DNA from: Eledone cirrhosa
Taxonomy: Eukaryota
Assembly (NCBI GenBank): GCA_964016885.1
Contig: OZ024743.1
Location: 291,524,001-291,588,000 of the forward strand
DNA: 64,000 bases
Reading direction: 5' to 3'
Part shown: in pieces, positions 2,633 through 61,980 of the stretch
Layout of the letters: each line of letters opens with the position of its first letter
Numbering within the stretch: the first letter of the stretch is position 1
Translations under genes and position numbers: made by a program
Notes under the pieces: model-generated
Told to the model about the DNA's origin: nothing
Database searches by the model: none
What the model saw: the letters and a program-made list of their open reading frames with translations, nothing else

Positions 2633-2657
<25 letters not shown>

Positions 2658-2658
<1 letters not shown>

Positions 2659-3179
2659 GGAAAAGATGAAACGAAATTTCATTTCTCACTCTTAGTACGG
2701 CTGTTACTTAAATATAAGTATGTATACTTACATACATATATGCATACAGACGTACAGTAGTATGTATATATATATATATACATACATGCACACATATATA
2801 TATATGTACGTATGGATTTACCGAACATTTATTATTAACTCGGCCGATTAACTCACTCGATATGCAAATTAGGCTGCTCAGCCGTTAACATGCATAAGGA
2901 AAGTATATACTTTCAGACGTTCAATCATCTAGCAGGAAGGTATTCGGTGCTAATAAGCTTGAAACTAGTACATCGTTCCTTCGTCAGTGTTGAACAAAAG
3001 GGCAAAGATGGTTGCTAAACACTGTACGGCGTAATTCGGGATGTTTGTTTACAAACAAACCGAGCATTATAATAAATGTTCGGTAAATCGATACGTACAT
3101 ATATATATATGTGTGCATGTATGTATATATATACATACTACTGCACGTCTGTATACATATATGTATGTACGTATACATA

Positions 3180-10860: not shown

Positions 10861-11075
10861 GTAGAATATTAAATGTTAAGTGTTAATTGAACAAGTACTT
10901 TCATGCTTTCGGAATCTTCCGTTTCATATTGTATGGTGGCAGTCAAGTTTGCAATTTTCAACTGTGGGAACAGTTGAAAATAGCAAAGTTGACTGTCACC
11001 ACACAATATTAACCTGAAGATTGCGAAAGCATGAAAGTACTTGTTCAATTAACACTTAAAATTTAATATTCTACT
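10861..11075. repeat. Fold-back element with ~105-bp arms, containing an HHR
   Basis: GTAGAATATTAAA...TTTTCAACTGT / ACAGTTGAAAA...TTTAATATTCTAC. Confidence 0.8.
11009..11047 (+). ncRNA. Minimal type I hammerhead
   Basis: AAC-CTGAAGA-TTGC GAAA GCAT-GAAA-GTAC-TT-GTT: palindromic stem III AGTACT, CUU site. A decayed mirror copy lies at ~10887-10925 on minus. Confidence 0.7.
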
Positions 11076-12759: not shown

Positions 12760-13320
12760 CTAGGGCGGGTAAAATTCCAGTGATCTATGGACGAGTTCTC
12801 TCCAGCGGTCTCTGTCCCTCATCGCTGCCTTGTCCTGCGTCTCCAGCAGACCAGTGTCTGTCCTTAGGGCATCAACATACGTTAAGCTTGGTCTTCCTCT
12901 TCCAGTGTGTCCATGTAGGGGCTCCCAGAGGAGCACTGAGTGCAATGCCAACTCTGGAGGTCGGTGAGTATGCCCACCTAACCTCAGTCTCCCCTGTGTC
13001 ACTTTTGAGCTGACTTTTGGGAGGCTCCCATACAGCTCTGAGTTCTTCATCCTCAGTGTATACTGATTAATGTTCAGAGCCATCCTCCGCATTCTTGAGT
13101 ATCACCCATCCACAATCTGAGTGATTTTCTTGGTCATTGTCCAAGTGTCAGACCCGTAGGGCATCACGGACTCCACTACAGCAATGAAGAGGCGGATTTT
13201 CAGGTCTTTACGAAGGTCCGACTTCCACACCGATCTCAAGCTGTGGCACGCCACCCAGGCTTTGCTCTTACTCTCAACCACATCATCTTCTGTATTCCCA
13301 ATCTGTGCTCCCAAATACTG
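12760..13320 (-). mobile_element. RTE/RTEX-group LINE, 3' segment (RT thumb and C-terminus), decayed
   Basis: YLGAQI...KAWVACHSLRSVWKSDLRKDLKIRLFIAVVESVMPYGSDTWT and RLRLGGHTHR...LLWEP...GRGRP...MRDRDRWR. The 3' end abuts (TA)n. Confidence 0.9.
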
Positions 13321-14740
13321 CACTGGCGGTATCAAGTGAGACCCTGGTGTCGAGGAGAAAGAACAAAAGTAAGCACGTCAGCTCTGCAGACCCAACAGTG
13401 TGTACAGCCAGAGAACATCTGAGAGCTGCCAAGGACCAATTATATGCTGATCCAACGGAGGAGAGGATGGATACTGTGGAGGTGGTTAGGGAAGAACTCT
13501 GTAACGCATACACTGAGGCCAGAGAGGAAGCACTGATATAGAAGATCAGAAGTGTGGGGAGAGCGGTTGACAGGTCTGGATGTAAGGAGAGCTGGATGAT
13601 CATCAAGGAGATCACAGGGAGGAAGAGAATGTGCTTGAGTCAGATCCAGGGAGTAGGGCCCGAGGATAGGAAGAAGAAATGGCTAGAGCATTTTATGACC
13701 CTAGTAGGAGAGTCGCCCTCCATAGCCCAGAGCATGGGGAGATCAGGCGGCTGTTTGAAGAACATGATATTGAGACAGAGCCCTTCAACAGAGAGGAGCT
13801 TCAGAGAGCCAAGAAGAAGATCAATGAGGGCAAGGCTCAGGGAGAAGATGGAGTGGCATCAGAGGTGATGAAGAGTTGGTGATTTTGACGATATCTTCCT
13901 GGGGTTCTGTAACCAGGCACTGGAGAAAGGCGTTGCCCCGAATCAGTGGAGGATCAGTAACATCGTGCCAGTGCCAAAGAAGGGAGATCTCTCTAACACC
14001 AACAACTACAAGCGGATCTCACTGACGTCATTGTGGCAAGGACCCTCAACAGGATGATTCTTAACAGAATCCAGCCTGAGCAGGAGAAGAAGCTCAGGGA
14101 CAACGAGAACGGCTTCAGAGAGGGAAGATCAACCACAAGTCACATCCTGATTTATAGGAGGTTATTAGAGCGAGCTAGAACAAAGTGCCTTCCTGCGGTC
14201 ATGGCTTTCATTGACTTTAGGAAGGCCTTTGCTTCTGTTGACCCTCACTGCCTGATGAAGATCTTACAGGCTTATAGAATCCCCAAGAAGATAGTGGATC
14301 TGATATCACTGCTCTACACCAACACCAAAGACCAAGTCATTACACCTGATGCGATGACAGAGTTCTTTGAGATAATGGCTGGAATGCTCCAGGGAAATAC
14401 ATTGGCTTCCTACCTTTTTATCATCATAGTGGACTGTTGTATGCGCCTGTGACTGGAGAAACACCAGGACTCTGGCTTTACTGTAGCACCGGCTCAGAGC
14501 AAGAGAGTTAAGGCGATAAAGATATCGGATGCTGAATTTGCCCACGACATAGCTTTAGTGACATATACAGTGAAGGAGGAAGATGATTTGATGCAGGAGG
14601 TAGAGACTGTGTCGATGAGTGTGGGCCTGAGAGTGAATGAGACGAAAACAAAATATCTAGTAGAGAATGTTGAGAAGCCAGAGGGGATTACTAATGTAGG
14701 TGGACATCCTGGATTTGGGAGCAAAGATTGGGAATACGGG
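13321..14740 (+). mobile_element. Same RTE/RTEX LINE, inverted upstream segment with the RT core, decayed
   Basis: VPKKGDLS..NY, NGFREGRST, FIDFRKAF, GMLQGNTLASYLF, EFAHDIAL, GLRVNETKTKYL. Several frameshifts. Ends at (TA)n. Confidence 0.9.
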
Positions 14741-14784
14741 ATATATATATATATGTGTGTGTGTGTAGTCCATGGGACGAGTTA

Positions 14785-14925
14785 GGTAGAAGTGGTTATA
14801 CAACAGTTAGTTCACCATACCGAGAACAATTGTTTCAACTTAGCGGATCCTCAGCTCGTTTCACCTTAGCTAAGGTTAAACAATTGTTCTAAGTATGGTG
14901 AACTAACTGTTGTGTAACCACTTCT
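14785..14925. repeat. Fold-back element containing an HHR
   Basis: TAGAAGTGGTTATACAACAGTTAGTTCACCATAC / GTATGGTGAACTAACTGTTGTGTAACCACTTCTA. Confidence 0.75.
14821..14858 (-). ncRNA. Minimal type I hammerhead with essentially no stem II
   Basis: CGAG-CTGAGGA-TCCGCTAAGTT-GAAA-CAATTG-TT-CTCG: palindrome ACAATTGT, GUU site. Confidence 0.65.
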
Positions 14926-17685: not shown

Positions 17686-18810
17686 TATTGTTATACTTTG
17701 GGAGGGTCATGTTCCCAATAAGAAACACACGCACCAGTTGCTTTCACTTCAATTTATTATAATAAATTTATAATAAATTTATAAATTTATAAATTTCTGC
17801 TTGCTTGGTTCCACAACCAGATAGTTGTTTATATATAGTCATAGTTCTTTCGTCACACACTCTGTGACCTCTTCAGTGACTGGGGATTCATTTCTTTGTT
17901 TCTGTGCCTCTCCTTTGTTCTGTCCTACGCCATTTTGTTTCTGTGTGTGTCTTGTGTGCTCAGTCTGCGCATGCGCCACATCCGGGTGTCTGTGTGTGTT
18001 TATGTTCATTTATTTATTTGTTTATTTACATGTTACTGGTTGGTTGTTTGTTCTATGTGTGTGTGTGTTTTCATTTTGTCCTTAATTGTAAGTTGTGATG
18101 TTGCTGTTCCACTCATATTTTCTATTTAATTTTGGTTGTAATTCTTTTATGTTTATTGCCTCTGTAATTTGTCTAAACATTGCGTCTTTTCTGTGTGTAG
18201 ATTCTATTTTTATTTCTATGTTCTCTAATTTACCCTTGTGTTCTATTTTAGCATGTTGGTAGAGTACAGATGATTCTTTATTATCTTGAAGGTCTCGCCA
18301 GTGTTCATTTATCCGTTCCCCTACACTACGAGCTGTCTCACCTATGTACACTCTATTTTTGTCTCTACATTGTCCTTCAGTACATCTTATGCTATACACT
18401 ACATTTCTAGTTTTACAGTTAATATGGGGGCTTATTTTACAGGTTATACATTTCTTATCTATACATGAGGGTCTTTGAAAAGGGTATGTCTTGCTAATAA
18501 GTGTTTTTACGGAGGTACCTGGTCTTTCTACTATCTTAATATTGAGTTTATGTTTATTTAGGGCCCTTCTAAATTTGTAAGCTAATTCACCTCTAGGGGT
18601 TGTATCGATGAACATTACACTCTGGTATTTATTGCTATCATACCATGAGTTTATTCTATTAGCCTTGTTCCTAGTTCTTTATATTCTATTCCAAAATTTG
18701 CTCCTATACAAGGGGCAGGTCCCATTTATGTCATTATTTACCATTCTTTCCCATTTGGTTCTGGCTCCTCTATACACTCTGATTTTATCTCTCTGATTGT
18801 AGCCAGAGAA
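17686..18810 (-). mobile_element. Penelope-like element (Neptune-like): Cys linker + GIY-YIG endonuclease + 3' pLTR
   Basis: ORF 18082-18615 gives CIDKKCITC...CKTRNVVYSIRC...C...VYIGETARSVGERINEH...RQITEAINI...LNRKYEW. An HHR lies downstream and the 3' end is at (TA)n. Confidence 0.9.
17837..17881 (-). ncRNA. Type I hammerhead in the PLE 3' pLTR
   Basis: AGTCA-CTGAAGA-G-GTCACA GAGTG TGTGAC-GAAA-GAAC-TA-TGACT, with a CUA site. Confidence 0.8.
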
Positions 18811-19401
18811 AAACATATGCCCAAGAGGAAGGAGCAGCCATTGGTGTTAGCATTGCAGGCGACATAGCTAACTTATTCATGGTATGGTGGGACAGTAGAC
18901 TTAAACTTAAACTTAAAGAACAATTAGAAGACCCCTTAACCCTGATAATGTACTCCCGCTACGTAGATGATATAAACATCGTAGTTAAGGCACCCCCACT
19001 AGAGAACAGTCAGGAACTAGAGAAAAACACAATGGAAAGCATCCAGCAAATAGCAAACTCCATCCACCAGAGCATTAGAGTTACTATAGACTACCCATGT
19101 AAACACCCCAACCATCGATTACCAGTACTAGACACAGAGCTGTGGTTAGATACCATTAACAACAAAAAACAAATCCTCCATTCCCATTATGCAAAACCCA
19201 TGACTTCCAAACATCTGATCCACCGAAACTCGGCCGTTTCGGACCATACCAAAATCAACATACTGATTGCGGATTTGGTACGGGTGATGAGAAATGTGTC
19301 CCGCATGTGCAACCCCGAAGAACTAGAGAGACACATACAACACTTCATCCACCGTATGCAGTTCTCTGGCTACAATCAGAGAGATAAAATCAGAGTGTAT
19401 A
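18811..19401 (+). mobile_element. Same PLE, inverted RT segment
   Basis: QEEGAAIG...ANLFM, YSRYVDDI, LPVLDTELW, HYAKPM...IHRNSA, MQFSGY. The last 40 bp duplicate 18771-18810 in reverse. Confidence 0.9.
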
Positions 19402-19416
19402 TATATATATATATAT

Positions 19417-19601
19417 AACGAAGGAGTTATGGTAAGGGGCCAGATGGTCCATAATGCACTCAATAATTAGGGTAGTAGAATGGGTAATAGGAAAATATAT
19501 GGCCCCGATGTTAGAGCTCAAGCCGTTTCGACGGATATTTCTGGACTGAAATAGCCATCGAAACGGCTTGAGTTCTGCCGTCGGTGTCATACATTTTCCT
19601 A
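19417..19601 (+). mobile_element. (TA)n-embedded short element: ~70-bp head plus ~115-bp hairpin
   Basis: Homologous to 60711-60903, 42186-42305 and, in part, 14945-15040. Hairpin GAGCTCAAGCCGTTTCGA...TCGAAACGGCTTGAGTTC. Confidence 0.7.
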
Positions 19602-21061: not shown

Positions 21062-21139
21062 TCTCGGACAGATTAGGGATTAATCTGTTTCGCCCTGAGT
21101 GTGTTTGTAACAGATAATCAACGGGCATCATCAGCGAGA
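21062..21139 (-). ncRNA. Full-size type I hammerhead with a canonical GUC site
   Basis: TCTCG-CTGATGA-T-GCCC...GGGC-GAAA-CAGATTA ATCCC TAATCTG-TC-CGAGA: stem I 5 bp, stem III 8 bp. Confidence 0.9.
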
Positions 21140-21803: not shown

Positions 21804-21897
21804 TGCCCCAGGTGAGGATCGAACTCACGACCTTCAGATTCCTCTGACTTCAGATGTGATTATAAGACTGACGCGCTGCCTACTGCGCTACCGATAT
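21804..21897 (-). tRNA. Intron-containing tRNA pseudogene: elongator tRNA-Met-type body with a TAT anticodon
   Basis: TCGGTAGCGCAGTAGGCAGCGCGTCAGTCT-TAT-A[21-nt intron]ATCTGAAGGTCGTGAGTTCGATCCTCACCTGGGGCA, followed by ATGTTTT. The first three acceptor-stem bases read ATA instead of GCC. Confidence 0.85.
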
Positions 21898-25101: not shown

Positions 25102-25203
<102 letters not shown>

Positions 25204-25212
25204 GTGTGTTTC

Positions 25213-25253
<41 letters not shown>

Positions 25254-25258
<5 letters not shown>

Positions 25259-25686
25259 CAGGTACACATATATATATGTACGTATCAGTTTAGCGGACGT
25301 TTATTATAACGCCCGCTTTGTCCGTTTGTAAACAAACGGACAGCCTGATTTATGCCGTACGGTGTTAAGGCAACCACGTCACCTTTTTGTTCAACACTGA
25401 CACAGGAACGATGTATTAGTTTCAAGCTTCTTAGCTATCATCAGCACCGTATACCCTTCTGCTAGATGGTTGAACGTTCGAAAGTATATACTTTCCCTAT
25501 GAAAATTAACGGCTGAGCAGCCTAATTTGCATATCGAGTGAGTTCAGTCGGCCAGGCGTACTGAAAACGATAAGTTGTAATGGAATGAGACGAAATTTCA
25601 TTTCTCACTCTTAGTACGGCACTTACTTAAATTATAAGAATGTATGTATACGTACATACATATATGTATACAGACGTACAGTAGCA

Positions 25687-25740
<54 letters not shown>

Positions 25741-26591
25741 CAGGTACACATATATATATATACGTATCAGTTTAGCGGACGTTTATTATAACGTCCGCTT
25801 TGTCCGTTTGTAAACAAACGGACAGCCTTATTTATGCCGTACGGTGTTAAGGCAAGCACGTCACCTTTTTGTTCAACACTGACACAGGAACGATGTACTA
25901 GTTTCAAGCTTCTTAGCTATCATCAGCACCGTATACCCTTCTGCCAGATGGTTGAACGTTTGAAAGTATATACTTTCCTTATGAAAATTAACGGCTGAGC
26001 AGCCTAATTTGCATATCGAGTGAGTTCAGTCGGCCAGGCGTACCGAGAACGATAAGTTGTAATGGAATGAAACGAAATTTCATTTCTCACTCTTAGTACG
26101 GCACTTACTTAAATGTAAGTATGTATGTATACGTACTTACATATATGTATACAGACGTACAGTAGCATGTATATATATATTTATACATACAGGTACACAT
26201 ATATATATGTACGTATCAGTTTAGCGGACGTTTATTATAACGCCCGCTTGTCCGTTTGTAAACAAACGGACAGCCTGATTTATGTCGTACGGTGTTAAGG
26301 CAATCACGTCACCTTTTTGTTCAACACTGACACAGGAACGATGTACTAGTTTCAAGCTTCTTAGCTATCATCAGTACCGTATACGCTTCTGCCAGACGGT
26401 TGAACGTTCGAAAGTATATACTTTCCTTATGAAAATTAACGGCTGAGCAGCCTAATTTGCATATCGAGTGAGTTCAGTCGGCCAGGCGTACCGAAAATGA
26501 TAAGTTGTAATGGAATGAAACGAAATTTCATTTCTCACTCTTAAGTAAGTGCCGTACTAAGAGTGAGAAATGAAATTTCGTTTCATTCCAT

Positions 26592-26595
<4 letters not shown>
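25254..26595 (-). repeat. Short array (~3 units) of a diverged subfamily of the 462-bp HHR repeat, ending in a ~50-bp inversion
   Basis: HHRs at 25408-25450, 25890-25932 and 26338-26380 (minus), with an octamer in each unit. 26543-26595 is the inverted family 3' end, running into (TA)n. Confidence 0.9.
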
Positions 26596-26677
<82 letters not shown>

Positions 26678-26685
26678 CATATATG

Positions 26686-26767
<82 letters not shown>

Positions 26768-32102: not shown

Positions 32103-32224
32103 ATGGAAAAAATGAAATTTCATTTCTCACTCTTAGTACGGCTGATACTTAAATATAAGTATGTATACGTACATACATATATGTATACAGACGTACAGTA
32201 GTATGTACATACATACATACATCT

Positions 32225-32268
<44 letters not shown>

Positions 32269-32672
32269 ATTAAGCTGTACACTGTTCGGCAACCATTATT
32301 TCCCTTTTGTTCAATACTGACAACTAACTCACTCGATATGCAAATTTGGCTGCTCAGCCGTTAATGTGCATAACGAAAGTATCTACTTTCAAACGTCCAA
32401 TCGATTGACAGGAAGGTATACACTGCTGATGACAGCTAAAAAGCTAGAAACTAGTTCATTGTTCTTTTGTCAGTGTTGAACAAAAGGGCAACGATGGTTG
32501 CCGAACACTGTACGGCTTAATTCGGGCTGTTTGTTTACAAACAAACCGAACATTATAATAAATTTTCGGTAAATCCATACGTATATATATATATATGGGT
32601 GCATGTATGTATGTATATACATACTTCTGTACGTCGGTATACATCTATGTTTATAAGTATACATACTTATAT
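32102..32672. mobile_element. Dispersed, internally inverted copy of the 462-bp HHR family, with an HHR at 32420-32462 (+)
   Basis: 32102-32322 is in array orientation. The inverted part contains the octamer and ACACTG-CTGATGA-CAGC TAAAAA GCTA-GAAA-CTAG-TT-CATTGT. Confidence 0.85.
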
Positions 32673-32676
32673 TTAT

Positions 32677-44794: not shown

Positions 44795-44889
44795 TCCTTT
44801 TTTTTTTTCGCTATTTAATTGTAAAAGACTATTTGAGTTTATAACTCTATATAAAATATATATGTATATATATGAAGGACACACACACG

Positions 44890-44946
<57 letters not shown>
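44795..44946 (+). repeat. Left copy of the direct duplication flanking the array (putative target-site duplication)
   Basis: TCC(T)11CGCTATTTAATTGTAAAAGAC...GAAGGACACACACACGC(AC)n(AT)n is repeated at 57874. Confidence 0.85.
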
Positions 44947-44952
<6 letters not shown>

Positions 44953-45363
44953 TGAAACAAAATGAAAACGAAATTTCATTTCTCACTCTTAGTATGGCAC
45001 TTACTTAAATGTAAGTATGCATGTATACGTACATACATATATGTATACAGACGTACATTAGCATGCACATATATATATATACATATATATATACATATGC
45101 ATACAGGTACACATACATATATGCACGTATCAGTTTAGCGGCGCTAACGTCGCTTGGTTCGTTTGTAAACAAACTGAACAGCCTGAATTTATGCCATACG
45201 GTGTTAAGGCAACCACGTCACCTTTTTGTTCAACACTGACACAGGAACGATGTACTAGTTTCAAGCTTGTTAGCTATCATCAGCACTGTTTACCCATCTG
45301 CCAGATAGTTGAACGTTCGAAAGTATATACTTTCCTTATGAAAATTAACGGCTGAGCAGCCTA

Positions 45364-45371
45364 ATTTGCAT
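45364..45371 (-). promoter_or_regulatory. Octamer motif ATGCAAAT (one per unit), candidate snRNA-type distal element
   Basis: ATTTGCAT on plus in all array units and in the diverged copies at ~2862, 25.5-26.5 kb and ~32338. Function is inferred. Confidence 0.5.
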
Positions 45372-45703
45372 ATTGAGTGAGTTAAATCGGTCAGGCATAC
45401 CGAAAACGATAAATTGAAACAAAATGAAAACGAAATTTCATTTCTCACTCTTAGTTTGGCACTTACTTAAATGTAAGTATGCATGTATACGTACATACAT
45501 ATATGTATACAGACGTACAGTAGCATGCACATATATATACATATATATATACATATGCATACAGGTACACATACATATATGCACGTATCAGTTTAGCGGC
45601 GCTAACGTCGATTTGTTCGTTTGTAAACAAACTGAACAGCCTGAATTTATGCCATACGGTGTTAAGGCAGCCACGTCACCTTTTTGTTCAACACTGACAC
45701 AGG

Positions 45704-45748
45704 AACGATGTACTAGTTTCAAGCTTGTTAGCTATCATCAGCACCGTT
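45704..45748 (-). ncRNA. Minimal type I hammerhead, representative array copy (first at 45246-45290, last at 57636-57680)
   Basis: AACGGTG-CTGATGA-TAGC TAACAA GCTT-GAAA-CTAG-TA-CATCGTT: 7-bp stem I with one G.U, palindrome ACTAGT, predicted cut between 45711 and 45710. Confidence 0.9.
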
Positions 45749-48700
45749 TACCCATCTGCCAGATAGTTGAACGTTCGAAAGTATATACTTTCCTTATGAA
45801 AATTAACTGCTGAGCAGCCTAATTTGCATATTGAGTGAGTTCAATCGGTCAGGCATACCGAAAACGATAAATTGAAACAAAATGAAAACGAAATTTCATT
45901 TCTCACTCTTAGTATGGCACTTACTTAAATGTAAGTATGCATGTATACGTACATACATATATGTATACAGACGTACAGTAGCATGCACATATATATATAT
46001 ACATATATATATACATATGCATACAGGTACACATACATATATGCACGTATCAGTTTAGCGGCGCTAACGTCGCTTTGTTCGTTTGTAAACAAACTGAACA
46101 GCCTGAATTTATGCCATACGGTGTTAAGGCAACCACGTCACCTTTTTGTTCAACACTGACACAGGAACGATGTACTAGTTTCAAGCTTGTTAGCTATCAT
46201 CAGCACCGTTTACCCATCTGCCAGATAGTTGAACGTTCGAAAGTATATACTTTCCTTATGAAAATTAACGGCTGAGCAGCCCAATTTGCATATTGAGTGA
46301 GTTAAATCGGTCAGGCATACCGAAAACGATAAATTGAAACAAAATGAAAACGAAATTTCATTTCTCACTCTTAGTATGGCACTTACTTAAATGTAAGTAT
46401 GCATGTATACGTACATACATATATGTATACAGACGTACAGTAGCATGCACATATATATATATACATATATATATACATATGCATACAGGTACACATACAT
46501 ATATGCACGTATCAGTTTAGCGGCGCTAACGTCGATTTGTTCGTTTGTAAACAAACTGAACAGCCTGAATTTATGCCATACGGTGTTAAGGCAACCACGT
46601 CACCTTTTTGTTCAACACTGACACAGGAACGATGTACTAGTTTCAAGCTTGTTAGCTATCATCAGCACCGTTTATCCATCTGCCAGATAGTTGAACGTTC
46701 GAAAGTATATACTTTCCTTATGAAAATTAACGGCTGAGCAGCCTAATTTGCATATTGAGTGAGTTCAATCGGTCAGGCATACCGAAAACGATAAATTGAA
46801 ACAAAATGAAAACGAAATTTCATTTCTCACTCTTAGTATGGCACTTACTTAAATGTAAGTATCTATGTATACGTACATACATATATGTATACAGACGTAC
46901 AGTAGCATGCACATATATATATATATACATATATATATACATATGCATACAGGTACACATACATATATGCACGTATCAGTTTAGCGGCGCTAACGTCGCT
47001 TTGTTCGTTTGTAAACAAACTGAACAGCATGAATTTATGCCATACGGTGTTAAGGCAACCACGTCACCTTTTTGTTCAACACTGACACAGGAACGATGTA
47101 CTAGTTTCAAGCTTGTTAGCTATCATCAGCACCGTTTACCCATCTGCCAGATAGTTGAACGTTCGAAAGTAAATACTTTCCTTATGAAAATTAACGGCTG
47201 AGCAGCCTAATTTGCATATTGAGTGAGTTAAATCGGTCAGGCATACCGAAAACGATAAATTGAAACAAAATGAAAACGAAATTTCATTTCTCACTCTTAG
47301 TATGGCACTTACTTAAATGTAAGTATGCATGTATACGTACATACATATTTGTATACAGACGTACAGTAGCATGCACATATATATATATACATATATATAT
47401 ACATATGCATACAGGTACACATACATATATGCACGTATCAGTTTAGCGGCGCTAACGTCGCTTTGTTCGTTTGTAAACAAACTGAACAGCCTGAATTTAT
47501 GCCATACGGTGTTAAGGCAACCACGTCACCTTTTTGTTCAACACTGACACAGGAACGATGTACTAGTTTCAAGCTTGTTAGCTATCATCAGCACCGTTTA
47601 CCCATCTGCCAGATAGTTGAACGTTCGAAAGTATATACTTTCCTTATGAAAATTAACGGCTGAGCAGCCTAATTTGCATATTGAGTGAGTTAAATCGGTC
47701 AGGCATACCGAAAACGATAAATTGAAACAAAATGAAAACGAAATTTCATTTCTCACTCTTAGTATGGCACTTACTTAAATGTAAGTATGCATGTATACGT
47801 ACATACATATATGTATACAGACGTACAGTAGCATGCACATATATATATATACATATATATATACATATGCATACAGGTACACATACATATATGCACGTAT
47901 CAGTTTAGCGGCGCTAACGTCGCTTTGTTCGTTTGTAAACAAACTGAACAGCCTGAATTTATGCCATACGGTGTTAAGGCAACCACGTCACCTTTTTGTT
48001 CAACACTGACACAGGAACGATGTACTAGTTTCAAGCTTGTTAGCTATCATCAGCACCGTTTACCCATCTGCCAGATAGTTGAACGTTCGAAAGTATATAC
48101 TTTCCTTATGAAAATTAACGGCTGAGCAGCCTAATTTGCATATTGAGTGAGTTCAATCGGTCAGGCATACCGAAAACGATAAATTGAAACAAAATGAAAA
48201 CGAAATTTCATTTCTCACTCTTAGTATGGCACTTACTTAAATGTAAGTATGCATGTATACGTACATACATATATGTATACAGACGTACAGTAGCATGCAC
48301 ATATATATATATACATATATATATACATATGCATACAGGTACACATACAAATATGCACGTATCAGTTTAGCGGCGCTAACGTCGCTTTGTTCGTTTGTAA
48401 ACAAACTGAACAGCCTGAATTTATGCCATACGGTGTTAAGGCAACCACGTCACCTTTTTGTTCAACACTGACACAGGAACGATGTACTAGTTTCAAGCTT
48501 GTTAGCTATCATCAGCACCGTTTACCCATCTGCCAGATAGTTGAACGTTCGAAAGTATATACTTTCCTTATGAAAATTAACGGCTGAGCAGCCTAATTTG
48601 CATATTGAGTGAGTTAAATCGGTCAGGCATACCGAAAACGATAAATTGAAACAAAATGAAAACGAAATTTCATTTCTCACTCTTAGTATGGCACTTACTT

Positions 48701-51700
48701 AAATGTAAGTATGCATGTATACGTACATACATATATGTATACAGACGTACAGTAGCATGCACATATATATATATACATATATATATACATATGCATACAG
48801 GTACACATACATATATGCACGTATCAGTTTAGCGGCGCTAACGTCGCTTTGTTCGTTTGTAAACAAACTGAACAGCCTGAATTTATGCCATACGGTGTTA
48901 AGGCAACCACGTCACCTTTTTGTTCAACACTGACACAGGAACGATGTACTAGTTTCAAGCTTGTTAGCTATCATCAGCACCGTTTACCCATCTGCCAGAT
49001 AGTTGAACGTTCGAAAGTATATACTTTCCTTATGAAAATTAACGGCTGAGCAGCCTAATTTGCATATTGAGTGAGTTAAATCGGTCAGGCATACCGAAAA
49101 CGATAAATTGAAACAAAATGAAAACGAAATTTCATTTCTCACTCTTAGTATGGCACTTACTTAAATGTAAGTATGCATGTATACGTACATACATATATGT
49201 ATACAGACGTACAGTAGCATGCACATATATATATATACATATATATATACATATGCATACAGGTACACATACATATATGCACGTATCAGTTTAGCGGCGC
49301 TAACGTCGCTTTGTTCGTTTGTAAACAAACTGAACAGCCTGAATTTATGCCATACGGTGTTAAGGCAACCACGTCACCTTTTTGTTCAACACTGACACAG
49401 GAACGATGTACTAGTTTCAAGCTTGTTAGCTATCATCAGCACCGTTTATCCATCTGCCAGATAGTTGAACGTTCGAAAGTATATACTTTCCTTATGAAAA
49501 TTAACGGCTGAGCAGCCTAATTTGCATATTGAGTGAGTTCAATCGGTCAGGCATACCGAAAACGATAAATTGAAACAAAATGAAAACGAAATTTCATTTC
49601 TCACTCTTAGTATGGCACTTACTTAAATGTAAGTATCTATGTATACGTACATACATATATGTATACAGACGTACAGTAGCATGCACATATATATATATAT
49701 ACATATATATATACATATGCATACAGGTACACATACATATATGCACGTATCAGTTTAGCGGCGCTAACGTCGCTTTGTTCGTTTGTAAACAAACTGAACA
49801 GCATGAATTTATGCCATACGGTGTTAAGGCAACCACGTCACCTTTTTGTTCAACACTGACACAGGAACGATGTACTAGTTTCAAGCTTGTTAGCTATCAT
49901 CAGCACCGTTTACCCATCTGCCAGATAGTTGAACGTTCGAAAGTAAATACTTTCCTTATGAAAATTAACGGCTGAGCAGCCTAATTTGCATATTGAGTGA
50001 GTTAAATCGGTCAGGCATACCGAAAACGATAAATTGAAACAAAATGAAAACGAAATTTCATTTCTCACTCTTAGTATGGCACTTACTTAAATGTAAGTAT
50101 GCATGTATACGTACATACATATTTGTATACAGACGTACAGTAGCATGCACATATATATATATACATATATATATACATATGCATACAGGTACACATACAT
50201 ATATGCACGTATCAGTTTAGCGGCGCTAACGTCGCTTTGTTCGTTTGTAAACAAACTGAACAGCCTGAATTTATGCCATACGGTGTTAAGGCAACCACGT
50301 CACCTTTTTGTTCAACACTGACACAGGAACGATGTACTAGTGTCAAGCTTGTTAGCTATCATCAGCACCGTTTACCCATCTGCCAGATAGTTGAACGTTC
50401 GAAAGTATATACTTTCCTTATGAAAATTAACGGCTGAGCAGCCTAATTTGCATATTGAGTGAGTTAAATCGGTCAGGCATACCGAAAACGATAAATTGAA
50501 ACAAAATGAAAACGAAATTTCATTTCTCACTCTTAGTATGGCACTTACTTAAATGTAAGTATGCATGTATACGTACATACATATATGTATACAGACGTAC
50601 AGTAGCATGCACATATATATATATACATATATATATACATATGCATACAGGTACACATACATATATGCACGTATCAGTTTAGCGGCGCTAACGTCGATTT
50701 GTTCGTTTGTAAACAAACTGAACAGCCTGAATTTATGCCATACGGTGTTAAGGCAACCACGTCACCTTTTTGTTCAACACTGACACAGGAACGATGTACT
50801 AGTTTCAAGCTTGTTAGCTATCATCAGCACCGTTTACCCATCTGCCAGATAGTTGAACGTTCGAAAGTATATACTTTCCTTATGAAAATTATCGGCTGAG
50901 CAGCCTAATTTGCATATTGAGTGAGTTCAATCGGTCAGGCATACCGAAAACGATAAATTGAAACAAAATGAAAACGAAATTTCATTTCTCACTCTTAGTA
51001 TGGCACTTACTTAAATGTTAGTATGCATGTATACGTACATACATATATGTATACAGACGTACAGTAGCATGCACATATATATATATACATATATATATAC
51101 ATATGCATACAGGTACACATACATATATGCACGTATCAGTTTAGCGGCGCTAACGTCGCTTTGTTCGTTTGTAAACAAACTGAACAGCCTGAATTTATGC
51201 CATACGGTGTTAAGGCAACCACGTCACCTTTTTGTTCAACACTGACACAGGAACGATGTACTAGTTTCAAGCTTGTTAGCTATCATCAGCACCGTTTACC
51301 CATCTGCCAGATAGTTGAACGTTCGAAAGTATATACTTTCCTTATGAAAATTAACGGCTGAGCAGCCTAATTTGCATATTGAGTGAGTTCAATCGGTCAG
51401 GCATACCGAAAACGATAAATTGAAACAAAATGAAAACGAAATTTCATTTCTCACTCTTAGTATGGCACTTACTTAAATGTAAGTATGCATGTATACGTAC
51501 ATACATATATGTATACAGACGTACAGTAGCATGCACATATATATATATACATATATATATACATATGCATACAGGTACACATACAAATATGCACGTATCA
51601 GTTTAGCGGCGCTAACGTCGCTTTGTTCGTTTGTAAACAAACTGAACAGCCTGAATTTATGCCATACGGTGTTAAGGCAACCACGTCACCTTTTTGTTCA

Positions 51701-54700
51701 ACACTGACACAGGAACGATGTACTAGTTTCAAGCTTGTTAGCTATCATCAGCACCGTTTACCCATCTGCCAGATAGTTGAACGTTCGAAAGTATATACTT
51801 TCCTTATGAAAATTAACGGCTGAGCAGCCTAATTTGCATATTGAGTGAGTTAAATCGGTCAGGCATACCGAAAACGATAAATTGAAACAAAATGAAAACG
51901 AAATTTCATTTCTCACTCTTAGTATGGCACTTACTTAAATGTAAGTATGCATGTATACGTACATACATATATGTATACAGACGTACAGTAGCATGCACAT
52001 ATATATATATACATATATATATACATATGCATACAGGTACACATACATATATGCACGTATCAGTTTAGCGGCGCTAACGTCGCTTTGTTCGTTTGTAAAC
52101 AAACTGAACAGCCTGAATTTATGCCATACGGTGTTAAGGCAACCACGTCACCTTTTTGTTCAACACTGACACAGGAACGATGTACTAGTTTCAAGCTTGT
52201 TAGCTATCATCAGCACCGTTTACCCATCTGCCAGATAGTTGAACGTTCGAAAGTATATACTTTCCTTATGAAAATTAACGGCTGAGCAGCCTAATTTGCA
52301 TATTGAGTGAGTTAAATCGGTCAGGCATACCGAAAACGATAAATTGAAACAAAATGAAAACGAAATTTCATTTCTCACTCTTAGTATGGCACTTACTTAA
52401 ATGTAAGTATGCATGTATACGTACATACATATATGTATACAGACGTACAGTAGCATGCACATATATATATATACATATATATATACATATGCATACAGGT
52501 ACACATACATATATGCACGTATCAGTTTAGCGGCGCTAACGTCGCTTTGTTCGTTTGTAAACAAACTGAACAGCCTGAATTTATGCCATACGGTGTTAAG
52601 GCAACCACGTCACCTTTTTGTTCAACACTGACACAGGAACGATGTACTAGTTTCAAGCTTGTTAGCTATCATCAGCACCGTTTACCCATCTGCCAGATAG
52701 TTGAACGTTCGAAAGTATATACTTTCCTTATGAAAATTAACGGCTGAGCAGCCTAATTTGCATATTGAGTGAGTTAAATCGGTCAGGCATACCGAAAACG
52801 ATAAATTGAAACAAAATGAAAACGAAATTTCATTTCTCACTCTTAGTATGGCACTTACTTAAATGTAAGAATGCATGTATACGTACATACATATACGTAT
52901 ACAGACGTACAGTAGCATGCACATATATATATATACATATATATATACATTTGCATACAGGTACACATACATATATGCACGTATCAGTTTAGCGGCGCTA
53001 ACGTCGATTTGTTCGTTTGTAAACAAACTGAACAGCCTGAATTTATGCCATACGGTGTTAAGGCAACCACGTCACCTTTTTGTTCAACACTGACACAGGA
53101 ACGATGTACTAGTTTCAAGCTTGTTAGCTATCATCAGCACCGTTTACCCATCTGCCAGATAGTTGAACGTTCGAAAGTATATACTTTCCTTATGAAAATT
53201 AACGGCTGAGCAGCCTAATTTGCATATTGAGTGAGTTCAATCGGTCAGGCATACCGAAAACGATAAATTGAAACAAAATGAAAACGAAATTTCATTTCTC
53301 ACTCTTAGTATGGCACTTACTTAAATGTAAGTATGTATGTATACGTACATACATATATGTATACAGACGTACAGTAGCATGCACATATATATATATACAT
53401 ATATATATACATATGCATACAGGTACACATACATATATGCACGTATCAGTTTAGCGGCGCTAACGTCGCTTTGTTCGTTTGTAAACAAACTGAACAGCCT
53501 GAATTTATGCCATACGGTGTTAAGTCAACCACGTCACCTTTTTGTTCAACACTGACACAGGAACGATGTACTAGTTTCAAGCTTGTTAGCTATCATCAGC
53601 ACCGTTTACCCATCTGCCAGATAGTTGAACGTTCGAAAGTATATACTTTCCTTATGAAAATTAACGGCTGAGCAGCCTAATTTGCATATTGAGTGAGTTC
53701 AATCGGTCAGGCATACCGAAAACGATAAATTGAAACAAAATGAAAACGAAATTTCATTTCTCACTCTTAGTATGGCACTTACTTAAATGTAAGTATGCAT
53801 GTATACGTACATACATATATCTATACAGACGTACAGTAGCATGCACATATATATATATACATATATATATACATATGCATACAGGTACACATACATATAT
53901 GCACGTATCAGTTTAGCGGCGCTAACGTCGATTTGTTCGTTTGTAAACAAACTGAACAGCCTGAATTTATGCCATACGGTGTTAAGGCAACCACGTCACC
54001 TTTTTGTTCAACACTGACACAGGAACGATGTACTAGTTTCAAGCTTGTTAGCTATCATCAGCACCATTTACCCATCTGCCAGATAGTTGAACGTTCGAAA
54101 GTATATACTTTCCTTATGAAAATTAACGGCTGAGCAGCCTAATTTGCATATTGAGTGAGTTCAATCGGTCAGGCATACCGAAAACGATAAATTGAAACAA
54201 AATGAAAACGAAATTTCATTTCTCACTCTTAATATGGCACTTACTTAAATGTAAGTATGCATGTATACGTACATACATATATGCACGTATCAGTTTAGCG
54301 GCGCTAACGTCGCTTTGTTCGTTTGTAAACAAACTGAACAGCCTGAATTTATGCCATACGGTGTTAAGGCAACCACGTCACCTTTTTGTTCAACACTGAC
54401 ACAGGAACGATGTACTAGTTTCAAGCTTGTTAGCTATCATCAGCACCGTTTACCCATCTGCCAGATAGTTGAACGTTCGAAAGTATATACTTTCCTTATG
54501 AAAATTAACGGCTGAGCAGCCTAATTTGCATATTGAGTGAGTTAAATCGGTCAGGCATACCGAAAACGATAAATTGAAACAAAATGAAAACGAAATTTCA
54601 TTTCTCACTCTTAGTATGGCACTTACTTAAATGTAAGTATGCATGTATACGTACATACATATATGTATACAGACGTACAGTAGCATGCACATATATATAT

Positions 54701-57700
54701 ATACATATATATATACATATGCATACAGGTACACATACATATATGCACGTATCAGTTTAGCGGCGCTAACGTCGCTTTGTTCGTTTGTAAACAAACTGAA
54801 CAGCCTGAATTTATGCCATACGGTGTTAAGGCAACCACGTCACCTTTTTGTTCAACACTGACACAGGAACGATGTACTAGTTTCAAGCTTGTTAGCTATC
54901 ATCAGCACCGTTTACCCATCTGCCAGATAGTTGAACGTTCGAAAGTATATACTTTCCTTATGAAAATTAACGGCTGAGCAGCCTAATTTGCATATTGAGT
55001 GAGTTAAATCGGTCAGGCATACCGAAAACGATAAATTGAAACAAAATGAAAACGAAATTTCATTTCTCACTCTTAGTATGGCACTTACTTAAATGTAAGT
55101 ATGCATGTATACGTACATACATATATGTATACAGACGTACAGTAGCATGCACATATATATATATACATATATATATACATATGCATACAGGTACACATAC
55201 ATATATGCACGTATCAGTTTAGCGGCGCTAACGTCGCTTTGTTCGTTTGTAAACAAACTGAACAGCCTGAATTTATGCCATACGGTGTTAAGGCAACCAC
55301 GTCACCTTTTTGTTCAACACTGACACAGGAACGATGTACTAGTTTCAAGCTTGTTAGCTATCATCAGCACCGTTTACCCATCTGCCAGATAGTTGAACGT
55401 TCGAAAGTATATACTTTCCTTATGAAAATTAACGGCTGAGCAGCCTAATTTGCATATTGAGTGAGTTAAATCGGTCAGGCATACCGAAAACGATAAATTG
55501 AAACGAAATGAAAACGAAATTTCATTTCTCACTCTTAGTATGGCACTTACTTAAATGTAAGTATGCATGTATACGTACATACATATATGTATACAGACGT
55601 ACAGTAGCATGCACATATATATATATACATATATATATACATATGCATACAGGTACACATACATATATGCACGTATCAGTTTAGCGGCGCTAACGTCGCT
55701 TTGTTCGTTTGTAAACAAACTGAACAGCCTGAATTTATGCCATACGGTGTTAAGGCAACCACGTCACCTTTTTGTTCAACACTGACACAGGAACGATGTA
55801 CTAGTTTCAAGCTTGTTAGCTATCATCAGCACCGTTTACCCATCTGCCAGATAGTTGAACGTTCGAAAGTATATACTTTCCTTATGAAAATTAACGGCTG
55901 AGCAGCCTAATTTGCATATTGAGTGAGTTAAATCGGTCAGGCATACCGAAAACGATAAATTGAAACAAAATGAAAACGAAATTTCATTTCTCACTCTTAG
56001 TATGGCACTTACTTAAATGTAAGTATGCATGTATACGTACATACATATATGTATACAGACGTACAGTAGCATGCACATATATATATATACATATATATAT
56101 ACATATGCATACAGGTACACATACATATATGCACGTATCAGTTTAGCGGCGCTAACGTCGCTTTGTTCGTTTGTAAACAAACTGAACAGCCTGAATTTAT
56201 GCCATACGGTGTTAAGGCAACCACGTCACCTTTTTGTTCAACACTGACACAGGAACGATGTACTAGTTTCAAGCTTGTTAGCTATCATCAGCACCGTTTA
56301 CCCATCTGCCAGATAGTTGAACGTTCGAAAGTATATACTTTCCTTATGAAAATTAACGGCTGAGCAGCCTAATTTGCATATTGAGTGAGTTAAATCGGTC
56401 AGGCATACCGAAAACGATAAATTGAAACAAAATGAAAACGAAATTTCATTTCTCACTCTTAGTATGGCACTTACTTAAATGTAAGTATGCATGTATACGT
56501 ACATACATATATGTATACAGACGTACAGTAGCATGCACATATATATATATACATATATATATACATATGCATACAGGTACACATACATATATGCACGTAT
56601 CAGTTTAGCGGCGCTAACGTCGCTTTGTTCGTTTGTAAACAAACTGAACAGCCTGAATTTATGCCATACGGTGTTAAGGCAACCACGTCACCTTTTTGTT
56701 CAACACTGACACAGGAACGATGTACTAGTTTCAAGCTTGTTAGCTATCATCAGCACCGTTTACCCATCTGCCAGATAGTTGAACGTTCGAAAGTATATAC
56801 TTTCCTTATGAAAATTAACGGCTGAGCAGCCTAATTTGCATATTGAGTGAGTTAAATCGGTCAGGCATACCGAAAACGATAAATTGAAACGAAATGAAAA
56901 CGAAATTTCATTTCTCACTCTTAGTATGGCACTTACTTAAATGTAAGTATGCATGTATACGTACATACATATATGTATACAGACGTACAGTAGCATGCAC
57001 ATATATATATATACATATATATATACATATGCATACAGGTACACATACATATATGCACGTATCAGTTTAGCGGCGCTAACGTCGCTTTGTTCGTTTGTAA
57101 ACAAACTGAACAGCCTGAATTTATGCCATACGGTGTTAAGGCAACCACGTCACCTTTTTGTTCAACACTGACACAGGAACGATGTACTAGTTTCAAGCTT
57201 GTTAGCTATCATCAGCACCGTTTACCCATCTGCCAGATAGTTGAACGTTCGAAAGTATATACTTTCCTTATGAAAATTAACGGCTGAGCAGCCTAATTTG
57301 CATATTGAGTGAGTTAAATCGGTCAGGCATACCGAAAACGATAAATTGAAACAAAATGAAAACGAAATTTCATTTCTCACTCTTAGTATGGCACTTACTT
57401 AAATGTAAGTATGCATGTATACGTACATACATATATGTATACAGACGTACAGTAGCATGCACATATATATATATATATATATACATATGCATACAGGTAC
57501 ACATACATATATGCACGTATCAGTTTAGCGGCGCTAACGTCGCTTTGTTCGTTTGTAAACAAACTGAATAGCCTGAATTTATGCCATACGGTGTTAAGGC
57601 AACCACGTCACCTTTTTGTTCAACACTGACACAGGAACGATGTACTAGTTTCAAGCTTGTTAGCTATCATCAGCACCGTTTACCCATCTGCCAGATAGTT

Positions 57701-57873
57701 GAACGTTCGAAAGTATATACTTTCCTTATGAAAATTAACGGCTGAGCAGCCTAATTTGCATATTGAGTGAGTTAAATCGGTCAGGCATACCGAAAACGAT
57801 AAATTGAAACAAAATGAAAACGAAATTTCATTTCTCACTCTTAGTATGGCACTTACTTAAATGTAAGTATGCA

Positions 57874-58091
<218 letters not shown>

Positions 58092-59019: not shown

Positions 59020-59850
59020 GGTCAGTTGAGTCCAAGAGGAGAATAGGACCCAGGTTGTTGAATCAAACTTTGCTCAGTGCTGGTGCGCGAGGGCTGTGAT
59101 ATATGATGTAAAAGGACATCCAGGACTGAAAAGAATAGGGAAGAATGACCAGGAGAACAGAAATGACGGACGACAGAAATATCGTGATAGAGAGGTGGCG
59201 CCGATGCAGTCGTCGATATAACGACCGTACAGCGGAAAAGTCGGTCCAGCGTACTGGGAGAAGATCTGGGCGTCGACGTAGCCAACAAACAAGTTGGCAT
59301 AGTTTGGACCCATGTTGGTTCCCATCGCTACCAGAAAAAGAAAAGCCATCGAGGGTCAGAACAAGCTCAGCCAGACGGAGAAGAGTGGTAGTGCTGGGGT
59401 AAGGGGTAGGGCGTAAATCTAAAAAAAAATGTTGGAGAGCGCGGAAGCCATCATCCCTCACGATGGCGGTATAGAGAGAGGTGATGTCCATGGTAAAGAG
59501 AAAGCGGGAGGGACCAGGAGTGAAGGAGAAGGAGGTGAAGAATCTAAGGGCATGATTTGTATCGTGCATTTGGGAGGGGAGATTGCCGACCAACCGGGCG
59601 AGGAAGGTGTCTAAATATTCAGAAATTATCTCAGTGGGGCAGTTGTACGCAGAAACGATAGGAAGGCCGGGATTATTTTGTTTGTGTATTTTTAGAAGGA
59701 AGTAGATGGTGGGTGTGCGAGGGGTGCTTACAATAAGGTTCAGGACTGTAGGTGGTATGAGATAGGAGGAGATGAGCTCGTGGATGGTGGAGGACACGAA
59801 CCGTTGGTAGCCAGGACTGGGGTCGGAGGATAAAGGGGGGTAAAACACGG
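59020..59850 (-). mobile_element. Penelope-like element RT fragment (Penelope/Poseidon-like), with internal deletions
   Basis: [54 protein letters not shown]. Confidence 0.9.
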
Positions 59851-59908
59851 TTATATATATCAAGATATATATATATATAAATATATATATATATGCATAT
59901 ATATATAT

Positions 59909-60903: not shown

Positions 60904-60971
60904 ATGTATATATATATATATATATTTTGGCGCGATCACTTTGGAAAATTAAATGTCTAATTTTGAGTTCG

Positions 60972-61045
60972 CTCCTGATGAGTCCGAAACTCTGGACATA
61001 TCCTGTTATTGGATGTCTTAAAATACGGACGAAACCATGGTAGAG
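60972..61045 (+). ncRNA. Type I hammerhead with a hairpin inserted in loop 2
   Basis: CTC-CTGATGA-GTCCG...(GACATATCC/GGATGTC)...CGGAC-GAAA-CCATG-GTA-GAG. Confidence 0.85.
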
Positions 61046-61626
61046 ATAATTTCGGTATGTACACATTTCTTCTAAGTTTGAATTTACACCTAATTGTGCA
61101 TGGTTGACGGTATATTTAGTCACTTTCTACATGCTGTTGAAATGTTGGATAAATACCCTATCGGGGCCACCGCGAAGAGGCCGCTTTCGGTTATTTGTCG
61201 AACATTTCTTCATAGGAGCCTTTATTCTTATAGCTTGGTCTAATTGATTTTTTATATGGTTAATTATGCTAATTGAGAGAGGAAATGGTACATATTTTAT
61301 CTAGTGATCCTAAGAACATGATTTATGATATATTGCTCTGATTATTTAATTTATTAATTCTTCATTGAGCCACAACGTGACCGGTTGCAAAACATATATA
61401 TCTATGACTTTATGTATATGTAAACATTTATATTTAAAAATCTGCCGTTAGGTTGAGATACAATTGGGCGATATTGGGCTGCGCTTTCTAGCAACAACCT
61501 ACCCGCCGTAAGCAACTAATCACATTTTTTCTAACTTGACCACTGCCACGTCACGATTCTTAGCCATTTTTGAATCTATTTTTGGCGCGATCACTTTGGA
61601 AAATTAAATGTCTAATTTTGAGATCG

Positions 61627-61700
61627 CTCCTGATGAGTCCGAAACACTCGACATATCCTGTTATTGGATGTCTTAAAATACGGACGAAACTATGGTAGAG
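61627..61700 (+). ncRNA. Second tandem hammerhead copy
   Basis: As 60972-61045, with stem III ACTATGGT. Confidence 0.8.
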
Positions 61701-61980
61701 ATAATTACGGTATATACACATTTCTTGTAAGTTTGGATTTACACCTAATTGTGTATGGTTGACGGTATATTTAGTCAGTTTCTACATGCTGTTGAAATGT
61801 TGGATAAATACTCTATCGGGGTAACCCCGAAGAGGCCGCTTTCGGTTATTTGTCAGAAATTTCTTCATAGGAGCCATTATTCTTATAGCTTGGTCTAATT
61901 GATTTTGTATATGGTTAATTATGCTAATTGGGAGAGGAAATGGTACATATTTTATCTAGTGAATCTAAGGACATGATTTA

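Follow-up and report, generated by a model that had tools for sequence, protein, structure and literature searches.

What is the 12.9-kb tandem array on the minus strand at positions 44947..57874 of a 64-kb window of Eledone cirrhosa DNA (GenBank assembly GCA_964016885.1, contig OZ024743.1; the window is the whole stretch analysed, positions 291,524,001 to 291,588,000), and how did it come to be there? An earlier note on this DNA had presented it as a satellite of self-cleaving hammerhead ribozymes, a candidate retrozyme system whose RNA would be mobilised by the machinery of Penelope-like elements (PLEs). We found that the array is no special locus but a single insertion of a very large non-coding mobile family dispersed through the genome. 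The retrozyme and PLE parts of that proposal gained from the structure of the insertions and the conservation of the ribozyme core. We think it very probable that the array is a single non-autonomous, non-coding retrozyme-type insertion, mobilised in trans by a PLE protein with reverse transcriptase (RT) and GIY-YIG domains.

Judged by sequence, the locus appears to belong to the metazoan non-LTR retrozymes (LTR, long terminal repeat), a published kind of element all of whose sequence-level features are present, and it would work like a non-autonomous PLE. As in the retrozymes of coral, mussel and axolotl, low-GC tandem units each carry a type I hammerhead and no coding sequence (PMC7229834), and, as with other retrozymes, copies range from dimers to long multimers and autonomous PLEs co-exist in the genome (PMC7229834; bioRxiv 10.64898/2026.07.22.740005); published retrozyme arrays include ones of 62, 180 and 300 units (same sources). 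The 462-bp unit is slightly longer than the 150-450 bp given in PMC7229834 and lies inside the 51-972 bp of bioRxiv 10.64898/2026.07.22.740005. The family itself seems to be new, since our literature searches, whose scope did not extend to Dfam and Repbase, found no account of it. Nor did we meet, in the accessible parts of the retrozyme sources, a link to PLEs drawn from insertion scars such as a tail, inverted arms and a TA target (PMC7229834; bioRxiv 10.64898/2026.07.22.740005).

The array and its hammerhead

Tandem Repeats Finder (TRF) reports a period of 462 in two tracts, 44947-54283 (20.2 copies) and 54271-57874 (7.8 copies), with matches of 98-99%; together with 28 hammerhead sites, this bears out the position, the period and the number of units first claimed. 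The units measure 458-464 bp, apart from one of 382 bp, and are followed by a 76-bp 5'-truncated piece. The short unit (54187..54568, minus strand) is the break between the two TRF tracts and retains its hammerhead, having lost 80 bp from the TA-rich part. Unit GC is 0.36, low by the retrozyme standard of <50%. The only frames in the unit are stop-to-stop stretches of 131-133 codons, found in 3 of the 28 units and running through the TA tract, and no open reading frame (ORF) for RT plus GIY-YIG lies inside it, the PLE fragments beside copies being separate insertions. We number the unit e1-e462 on the ribozyme strand, which places the cleavage site at e156/157.

All 28 type I hammerhead sites lie on the minus strand, and 27 have an intact core, in consecutive runs of 11 and 16. 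In 25 of them the sequence is identical to the 45-nt motif of the earlier note; two (45246 and 54024) carry single stem I changes, and only the one at 50328..50372 (minus) has a changed catalytic core, GAAA to GACA, which presumably leaves it inactive. In the unit used as an example (45704..45748, minus), cleavage is predicted between 45711 and 45710, in agreement with the position proposed before. The other sites start, on the minus strand, at 45246, 46166, 46628, 47092, 47554, 48016, 48478, 48940, 49402, 49866, 50328, 50790, 51252, 51714, 52176, 52638, 53100, 53562, 54024, 54406, 54868, 55330, 55792, 56254, 56716, 57178 and 57636. The complete core with a 7-bp stem I, one G.U among its pairs, was thus found as described, although the other stems need redrawing: stem II is better shown as a U.U mismatch followed by four base pairs (AGCU/AGCU), and the palindrome ACUAGU that had been given as stem III is present but contains a stem of one A-U pair closing CUAG.

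Several computations speak against the hammerhead. A search at Rfam gathering thresholds returned no hammerhead within the window, and the Infernal check that had been suggested gave as its best match HH9 (clan CL00010), which scored 18.5 bits where 52 are required (E=0.13). Taken by itself, the 62-nt motif is no more stably folded than shuffled sequence (z=-0.9), RNAfold gives inner stem I pairing probabilities of 0.18-0.80 with a competing register, and it does not predict a stem III between units. Because Rfam makes no call, the case for the hammerhead has to be made from anatomy and comparison. In 30 first-order Markov windows of 64 kb, a strict type I descriptor matched nowhere. With the extended stem I, which RNAfold renders as firm, the motif (96 nt) folds at z=-3.4, and the ACUAGU duplex has an energy of -6.8 kcal/mol. 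A 2026 preprint calls an array active if it holds at least two consecutive complete ribozymes with a minimum free energy (MFE) below -5 kcal/mol (bioRxiv 10.64898/2026.07.22.740005); by that definition the array would be active as modelled, the 62-nt motif having an MFE of -13.9 kcal/mol, a value that uses a shifted stem I. We set aside the folding score of the whole monomer (z=-7.8), which comes largely from TA-rich hairpins; the other Rfam matches in the window, to miRNA families, are driven by microsatellites.

Comparison among copies is more telling. The earlier note had named a core no better conserved than the rest of the unit as grounds for abandoning the idea, but among 55 units, taken from 62 loci that a non-ribozyme motif had selected, conservation was 98.0% at the 11 core positions and 88.8% at other non-CpG positions (P ~0.004, the copies being related). 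Subfamily changes fall at tolerated positions, namely N7 (U/C), loop II and the outer part of stem I; in addition, a single pair of that stem varies across subfamilies yet stays paired (G.U, A-U, U.G). Contigs from run X1 vary at the same sites, with no core variant among those listed at 5%. In 10 hand-picked alignment rows, 95% of 185 cells in the named structure were paired, with two double changes; 10 of 500 shuffles did as well, which makes the support modest, and slid controls reached 26-42%. On these comparative grounds we take the hammerhead to be real, and its core appears to be under selection across subfamilies.

How well such a motif would cut may be judged from its nearest described counterparts. 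Its single-pair stem III with a palindromic tetraloop resembles axolotl HHR_Amex1, and its U.U at the base of stem II resembles HHR_Amex2 (PMC7229834), whose monomers cut poorly (6% for HHR_Amex1 and 22% for HHR_Amex2) and whose dimers cut much better (PMC7229834). Set against the axolotl and newt satellite 2 hammerheads, the present motif unites the two weak features, and its stem I is extended to a considerable length (PMC7229834); the unit sequence is presumably unrelated to those repeats. A dimer is no assurance of activity, since only one of nine predicted Xenopus dimers cleaved in vitro (bioRxiv 10.64898/2026.07.22.740005).

Dispersed copies, insertion scars and a candidate helper

An exact search of the 3.0-Gb genome with a 34-nt core pattern gives 11,574 matches, and its backwards control gives none; a 19-nt motif from the 3' end gives 25,030, and a pattern for cores with a different upstream sequence gives 4,841, mostly from a 422-bp subfamily. 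In all, the genome carries tens of thousands of units. We mapped 121 loci, mostly the first listed places on contig C1 plus the top BLAST matches, so that the proportions below are those of this sample. Most copies are dispersed insertions of one to three units with fixed ends and inverted arms, and young arrays on other contigs are 97-99% identical to the one at 44947-57874. The window itself holds three siblings: an older head-to-head inverted copy with one long and one short 3' end (2653..3178); three hammerhead units of 448-482 bp and ~87% identity with a short inverted arm (25161..26692, minus); and a further older head-to-head copy (32109..32675) with a decayed hammerhead at 32426 (plus). 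Low-depth contigs 98-99% like the unit, one each in runs X4 and X5 (organisms B and C), are possibly carry-over and not a sign of wider distribution.

These insertions bear the scars of PLEs, and the mobilisation by PLE machinery proposed earlier is thereby backed by TA targets, head-to-head arms and two fixed 3' ends. Head-to-head inverted pairs number 73 in the 121 loci, and among the 62 loci selected through the 3' motif they number 38; 58 of the 73 join a long to a short end, one arm stopping near e400 and the other near e460, whereas one is long with long, one short with short, and 13 involve another end. The DNA beyond the end is TA-rich at 83 of 107 long ends and at 59 of 82 short ends but at only 2 of 22 other ends, the background being 15%. 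The TA run begins most commonly at e400 (27 of 90 short ends) or at e402 (13), the long end lies at e460, and the commonest spacing of the two 3' ends is 60 nt. In PLEs likewise a tail is carried at one end only (PMC8557442, PMC3846280), and it is the stretch between two internal RT start sites (PMC11167929). An apparent pile-up of 5' ends at unit position 1 proved to be mostly an alignment artefact, with a short upstream unit end in most of the 27 cases printed.

The array itself ends at the long 3' site (44947) within a (TA)n microsatellite (44905..44949) that adjoins the 3' end of the element; its terminal unit bears the 60-nt tail (44950..45009, minus) between the two fixed 3' ends, which we regard as RT start sites; and it is truncated at its 5' end at e387 and lacks an inverted arm. 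A fixed 3' end and a truncated 5' end leave no LTR architecture, the primer-binding site and polypurine tract lying outside our search. The array is flanked by a ~155-bp direct duplication, of which the left copy (44795..44952, plus) comprises ~110 bp of unique sequence and the TA run, and the right copy (57874..58032, plus), joined to the 5'-truncated end, differs by one substitution, one indel and a longer TA run. This is probably an unusually long target-site duplication, to be compared with 8-10 bp in rotifer PLEs (PMC8557442, PMC3846280). Elsewhere in the family so long a duplication is exceptional, with one case among 65 other solo arms, and mostly no target-site duplication is detectable. 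A second insertion with a long flank duplication, of ~260 bp, was seen at L201 (G000:C1:56900400-56905800).

In their 5' truncation, partial tandems and inverted 5' copies the insertions resemble PLEs of the GIY-YIG kind, namely Penelope/Poseidon, Neptune and Nematis (PMC8557442, PMC3846280), and they share with PLEs the tail at one end, two internal RT starts, AT-rich or microsatellite targets and a hammerhead in the repeat (PMC8557442, PMC3846280, PMC11167929). They differ in having no ORF, multi-unit arms and a tail of 60 nt where PLE tails measure 30-40 bp (PMC8557442, PMC3846280). Another parallel is Chlamys MRC1, a non-coding PLE derivative with multicopy head-to-tail insertions, although elements of that type share 3' sequence with an autonomous partner and belong to a clade without canonical hammerheads (PMC8557442).

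Which PLE might supply the protein? A truncated, inverted member of a young autonomous family lies in the window at 17690..19418, with a GIY-YIG ORF (18082-18678, minus), an RT piece (18783-19418, plus) and a hammerhead-like motif of its own (17837-17881, minus). The genome holds 39,563 candidates for this family, of which the best 150 are 97-100% identical, with open frames of up to 1167 aa. The protein has its GIY-YIG domain at the C terminus and a cysteine motif within the linker, features by which the account in PMC8557442 would put the family with Neptune/Nematis. Pfam finds nothing on the whole 1167-aa ORF and weak GIY-YIG and RVT_1 matches on pieces of it. The 1167-aa frame (L111:1688-5188; G000:C1:48765187-48768687) has a long Asn/Thr/His-rich insert before the RT, and a similar insert has been described in rotifer PLEs (PMC3846280). 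The family has two 3' ends in TA, accounting for 20 and 19 of 55 ends, with exactly 60 nt between them; spacings of ~56, 79, 95 and 116 were seen in other families among the loci (few copies each), so the equal spacing in unit and candidate helper is suggestive and not unique. Both ends of the helper and the long end of the unit fall at TAT|CG, and e425-e438 of the unit shares a 14-nt near match, GAAAYGAAATWTCGT, with the long end of the helper, which is not significant in alignment.

The absence of homology counts against this partnership. Unit and helper do not align (154 of 300 and 101 of 300 shuffles were as good), and no unit homology was found in 28 GIY-YIG 3' regions (out of 10,595 candidates). 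Five long-ORF copies of the helper likewise showed no homology to the unit. No homology to the terminal repeats of PLEs (pLTRs) having been found for the 462-bp unit, the family differs from the 24 of 57 Xenopus retrozyme families that matched known repeats, mostly PLEs (bioRxiv 10.64898/2026.07.22.740005). A search for an autonomous parent by tblastn with three PLE peptides across the 121 loci returned only separate neighbouring insertions, and a homologous parent may exist among families outside this sample. We therefore name the young Neptune/Nematis-type PLE as the likeliest helper only tentatively.

RNA templates and rival explanations

How would a copy be made? The hammerhead strand would first be transcribed, as strand-specific A>G hypermutation suggests for ancestral templates: among 233 unit pieces, three, which come from 2 of 108 loci, are A>G hypermutated, always on the ribozyme strand, and none is T>C hypermutated. 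In the three pieces A>G makes up 14 of 17, 11 of 15 and 10 of 17 changes; at L092, 11 A>G changes are common to both arms, and L154 has 10. We presume that the hypermutation is ADAR editing fixed by reverse transcription, and it points to edited RNA, transcribed from the ribozyme strand, as the ancestral template. A tempering observation is that without the three pieces A>G exceeds T>C only slightly (75 against 60). At another locus (L115, G000:C1:2083300-2089300), left out of these counts, the upstream pLTR of a PLE also looks A>G hypermutated on the sense strand and is likely another editing fossil.

Because of its anatomy and the selection on it, we would expect the hammerhead then to cut after GUA, probably as a double hammerhead formed through the ACUAGU palindrome or with the aid of a protein. 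The PLE endonuclease would nick (TA)n and the RT would start internally at either of two sites separated by 60 nt, often using one on each strand, so that head-to-head arms result, one with the long end and the other with the short; the structure is what we see here, and the enzymology is carried over from PMC11167929. The RT would pass the ribozyme site into further units, which is why the template would be a circle or an uncut multimer and not the cut monomer. The cut linear monomer is ruled out as template, in that 55 of 97 arms run past the cleavage site, where 5' ends show no excess (1 observed, 2.2 expected). Some insertions look as though copied from a single template: at C1:50.60M seven units differ by 0-1 base across both inverted arms, at C1:49.58M the order is an exact (AB)n, with 13 differences between A and B and none between A units over the first six units, and at C1:19.31M it is ABAB. 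A monomer or dimer circle would suffice for all three, and so would RNA transcribed from a uniform donor array. An origin of (AB)n through the death of every second ribozyme was not borne out, cores being intact in both unit types with only stem changes in B.

A circular template is quite possible, although we stop short of preferring it. Alternatively, one could envision the same family and PLE machinery using uncut linear multimers transcribed from existing arrays, with circles absent or a by-product and the hammerhead merely trimming transcript ends, an explanation that we also hold to be a serious contender. In a reconstituted PLE, hammerhead cleavage is not required for insertion, which goes against the role we give the ribozyme, and the main substrate is uncut RNA, mutation of the ribozyme does not stop insertion, and no RNA-seq ends were reported at the site (PMC11167929). 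Many arrays are heterogeneous, the one at 44947-57874 included. Its units are a mosaic of variants without a dominant period (lag means 2.9-3.6), and because of this mosaic the array is not the product of a single circle; it fits neither a circle nor a uniform donor cleanly. The variant G256T is common to the array and to loci on contigs C2 and C279; its linkage to T25G, found in 5 of 5 units, spans the cleavage site and does not hold inside the cut monomer. On the other side, trimming does not readily account for a core under selection across subfamilies, and identical units on both arms together with exact (AB)n suit copying from a circle, although a homogeneous donor array would also produce them. 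For the present array we find it rather likely that a multi-unit insertion with at least two variants came first and that local growth and turnover then raised it to 28 units.

Could the array instead be an ordinary satellite, grown by unequal crossing-over and carrying the fossil ribozyme of a long-dead element? Local duplications within it (units 18-19 are similar to 24-25) would fit, and a sister array behaves in just this way. That array (G000:C3:12272000-12324500; L125-L127, L265-L269), at least 52 kb long as sampled and not read end to end, has GUG at the cleavage site and an altered stem II base in 52 of 52 ribozymes read, and seems to be a satellite grown from a dead copy. Because its ribozymes are dead, long arrays need no active ribozyme, and size says nothing on activity. 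However, the dispersed short copies with fixed ends and inverted arms, the close identity of young arrays on other contigs and the 27 intact cores of 28 make an ordinary satellite an improbable account of the locus. Still less probable is an assembly artefact in array length or flank duplication: near-identical units and the reliance on contigs, with no raw long reads, leave room for one, but the units include distinct variants, the flank copies differ by substitution, indel and TA length, and L201 offers another long duplication. A DNA-level rolling-circle (Helitron-like) element with an internal tandem and an incidental ribozyme match shares tandem units, TA targets and the general lack of target-site duplications, and is hardly credible given that A>G hypermutation, 5' truncation with inversions, a two-end tail and ribozyme selection call for an RNA intermediate.

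Returning to a retrozyme mobilised by PLE machinery, one could go further and suppose that the family is a viroid-like circular RNA parasite, non-homologous to its helper, which mimics the geometry of a Neptune/Nematis-type PLE (60-nt start spacing, TA), and whose monomer or dimer circle is copied repeatedly from each of the two nicked strands, so that inverted arrays arise ready-made. We consider this unlikely as matters stand; if true, the loci would document directly, in the genome, the reverse transcription of a retrozyme circle by a rolling-circle mode, the mobilising enzyme would be named and the missing step of the retrozyme life cycle closed. In PMC7229834 the enzyme and template that mobilise animal retrozymes are still a proposal, and the case for PLEs has been made from co-occurrence and pLTR similarity (bioRxiv 10.64898/2026.07.22.740005). 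The present family offers many mechanistic scars and an intact, very young candidate helper of matching tail length, which puts mobilisation within direct reach of the in vitro PLE assay described in PMC11167929. Within a single genome the family also displays the two fates of such repeats, intact ribozymes in arrays like that at 44947-57874 and dead ones in the giant array on C3.

Other elements in the window

The window contains further hammerhead-like sequences. Two ~655-bp units at 60930-61980 (plus) form a second hammerhead tandem, in which the motif has a type I core, a CAUG loop and a long insertion in stem II; the tandem ends in (TA)n and is unrelated to the 462-bp family. Other cores lie at 21134(-)/21491(+), 30321(-)/31221(+) and 31848(-)/31977(+), each a head-to-head pair with unequal ends in TA, and at 11014(+), a motif that at other loci sits 3' of a GIY-YIG ORF; these are likely other PLE-type families. 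By eye, PLE-like RT pieces were recognised on the minus strand at 611-976 and 59063-59890, and a LINE-like RT fragment lies at 12760-14785 (RVT_1, E=8e-16). Lastly, 21804-21897 (minus) is a tRNA-like sequence with an intron-sized insert (Rfam, 37.1 bits); ARAGORN called no tRNA in the window, this segment included, and it is probably a pseudogene or the head of a SINE.

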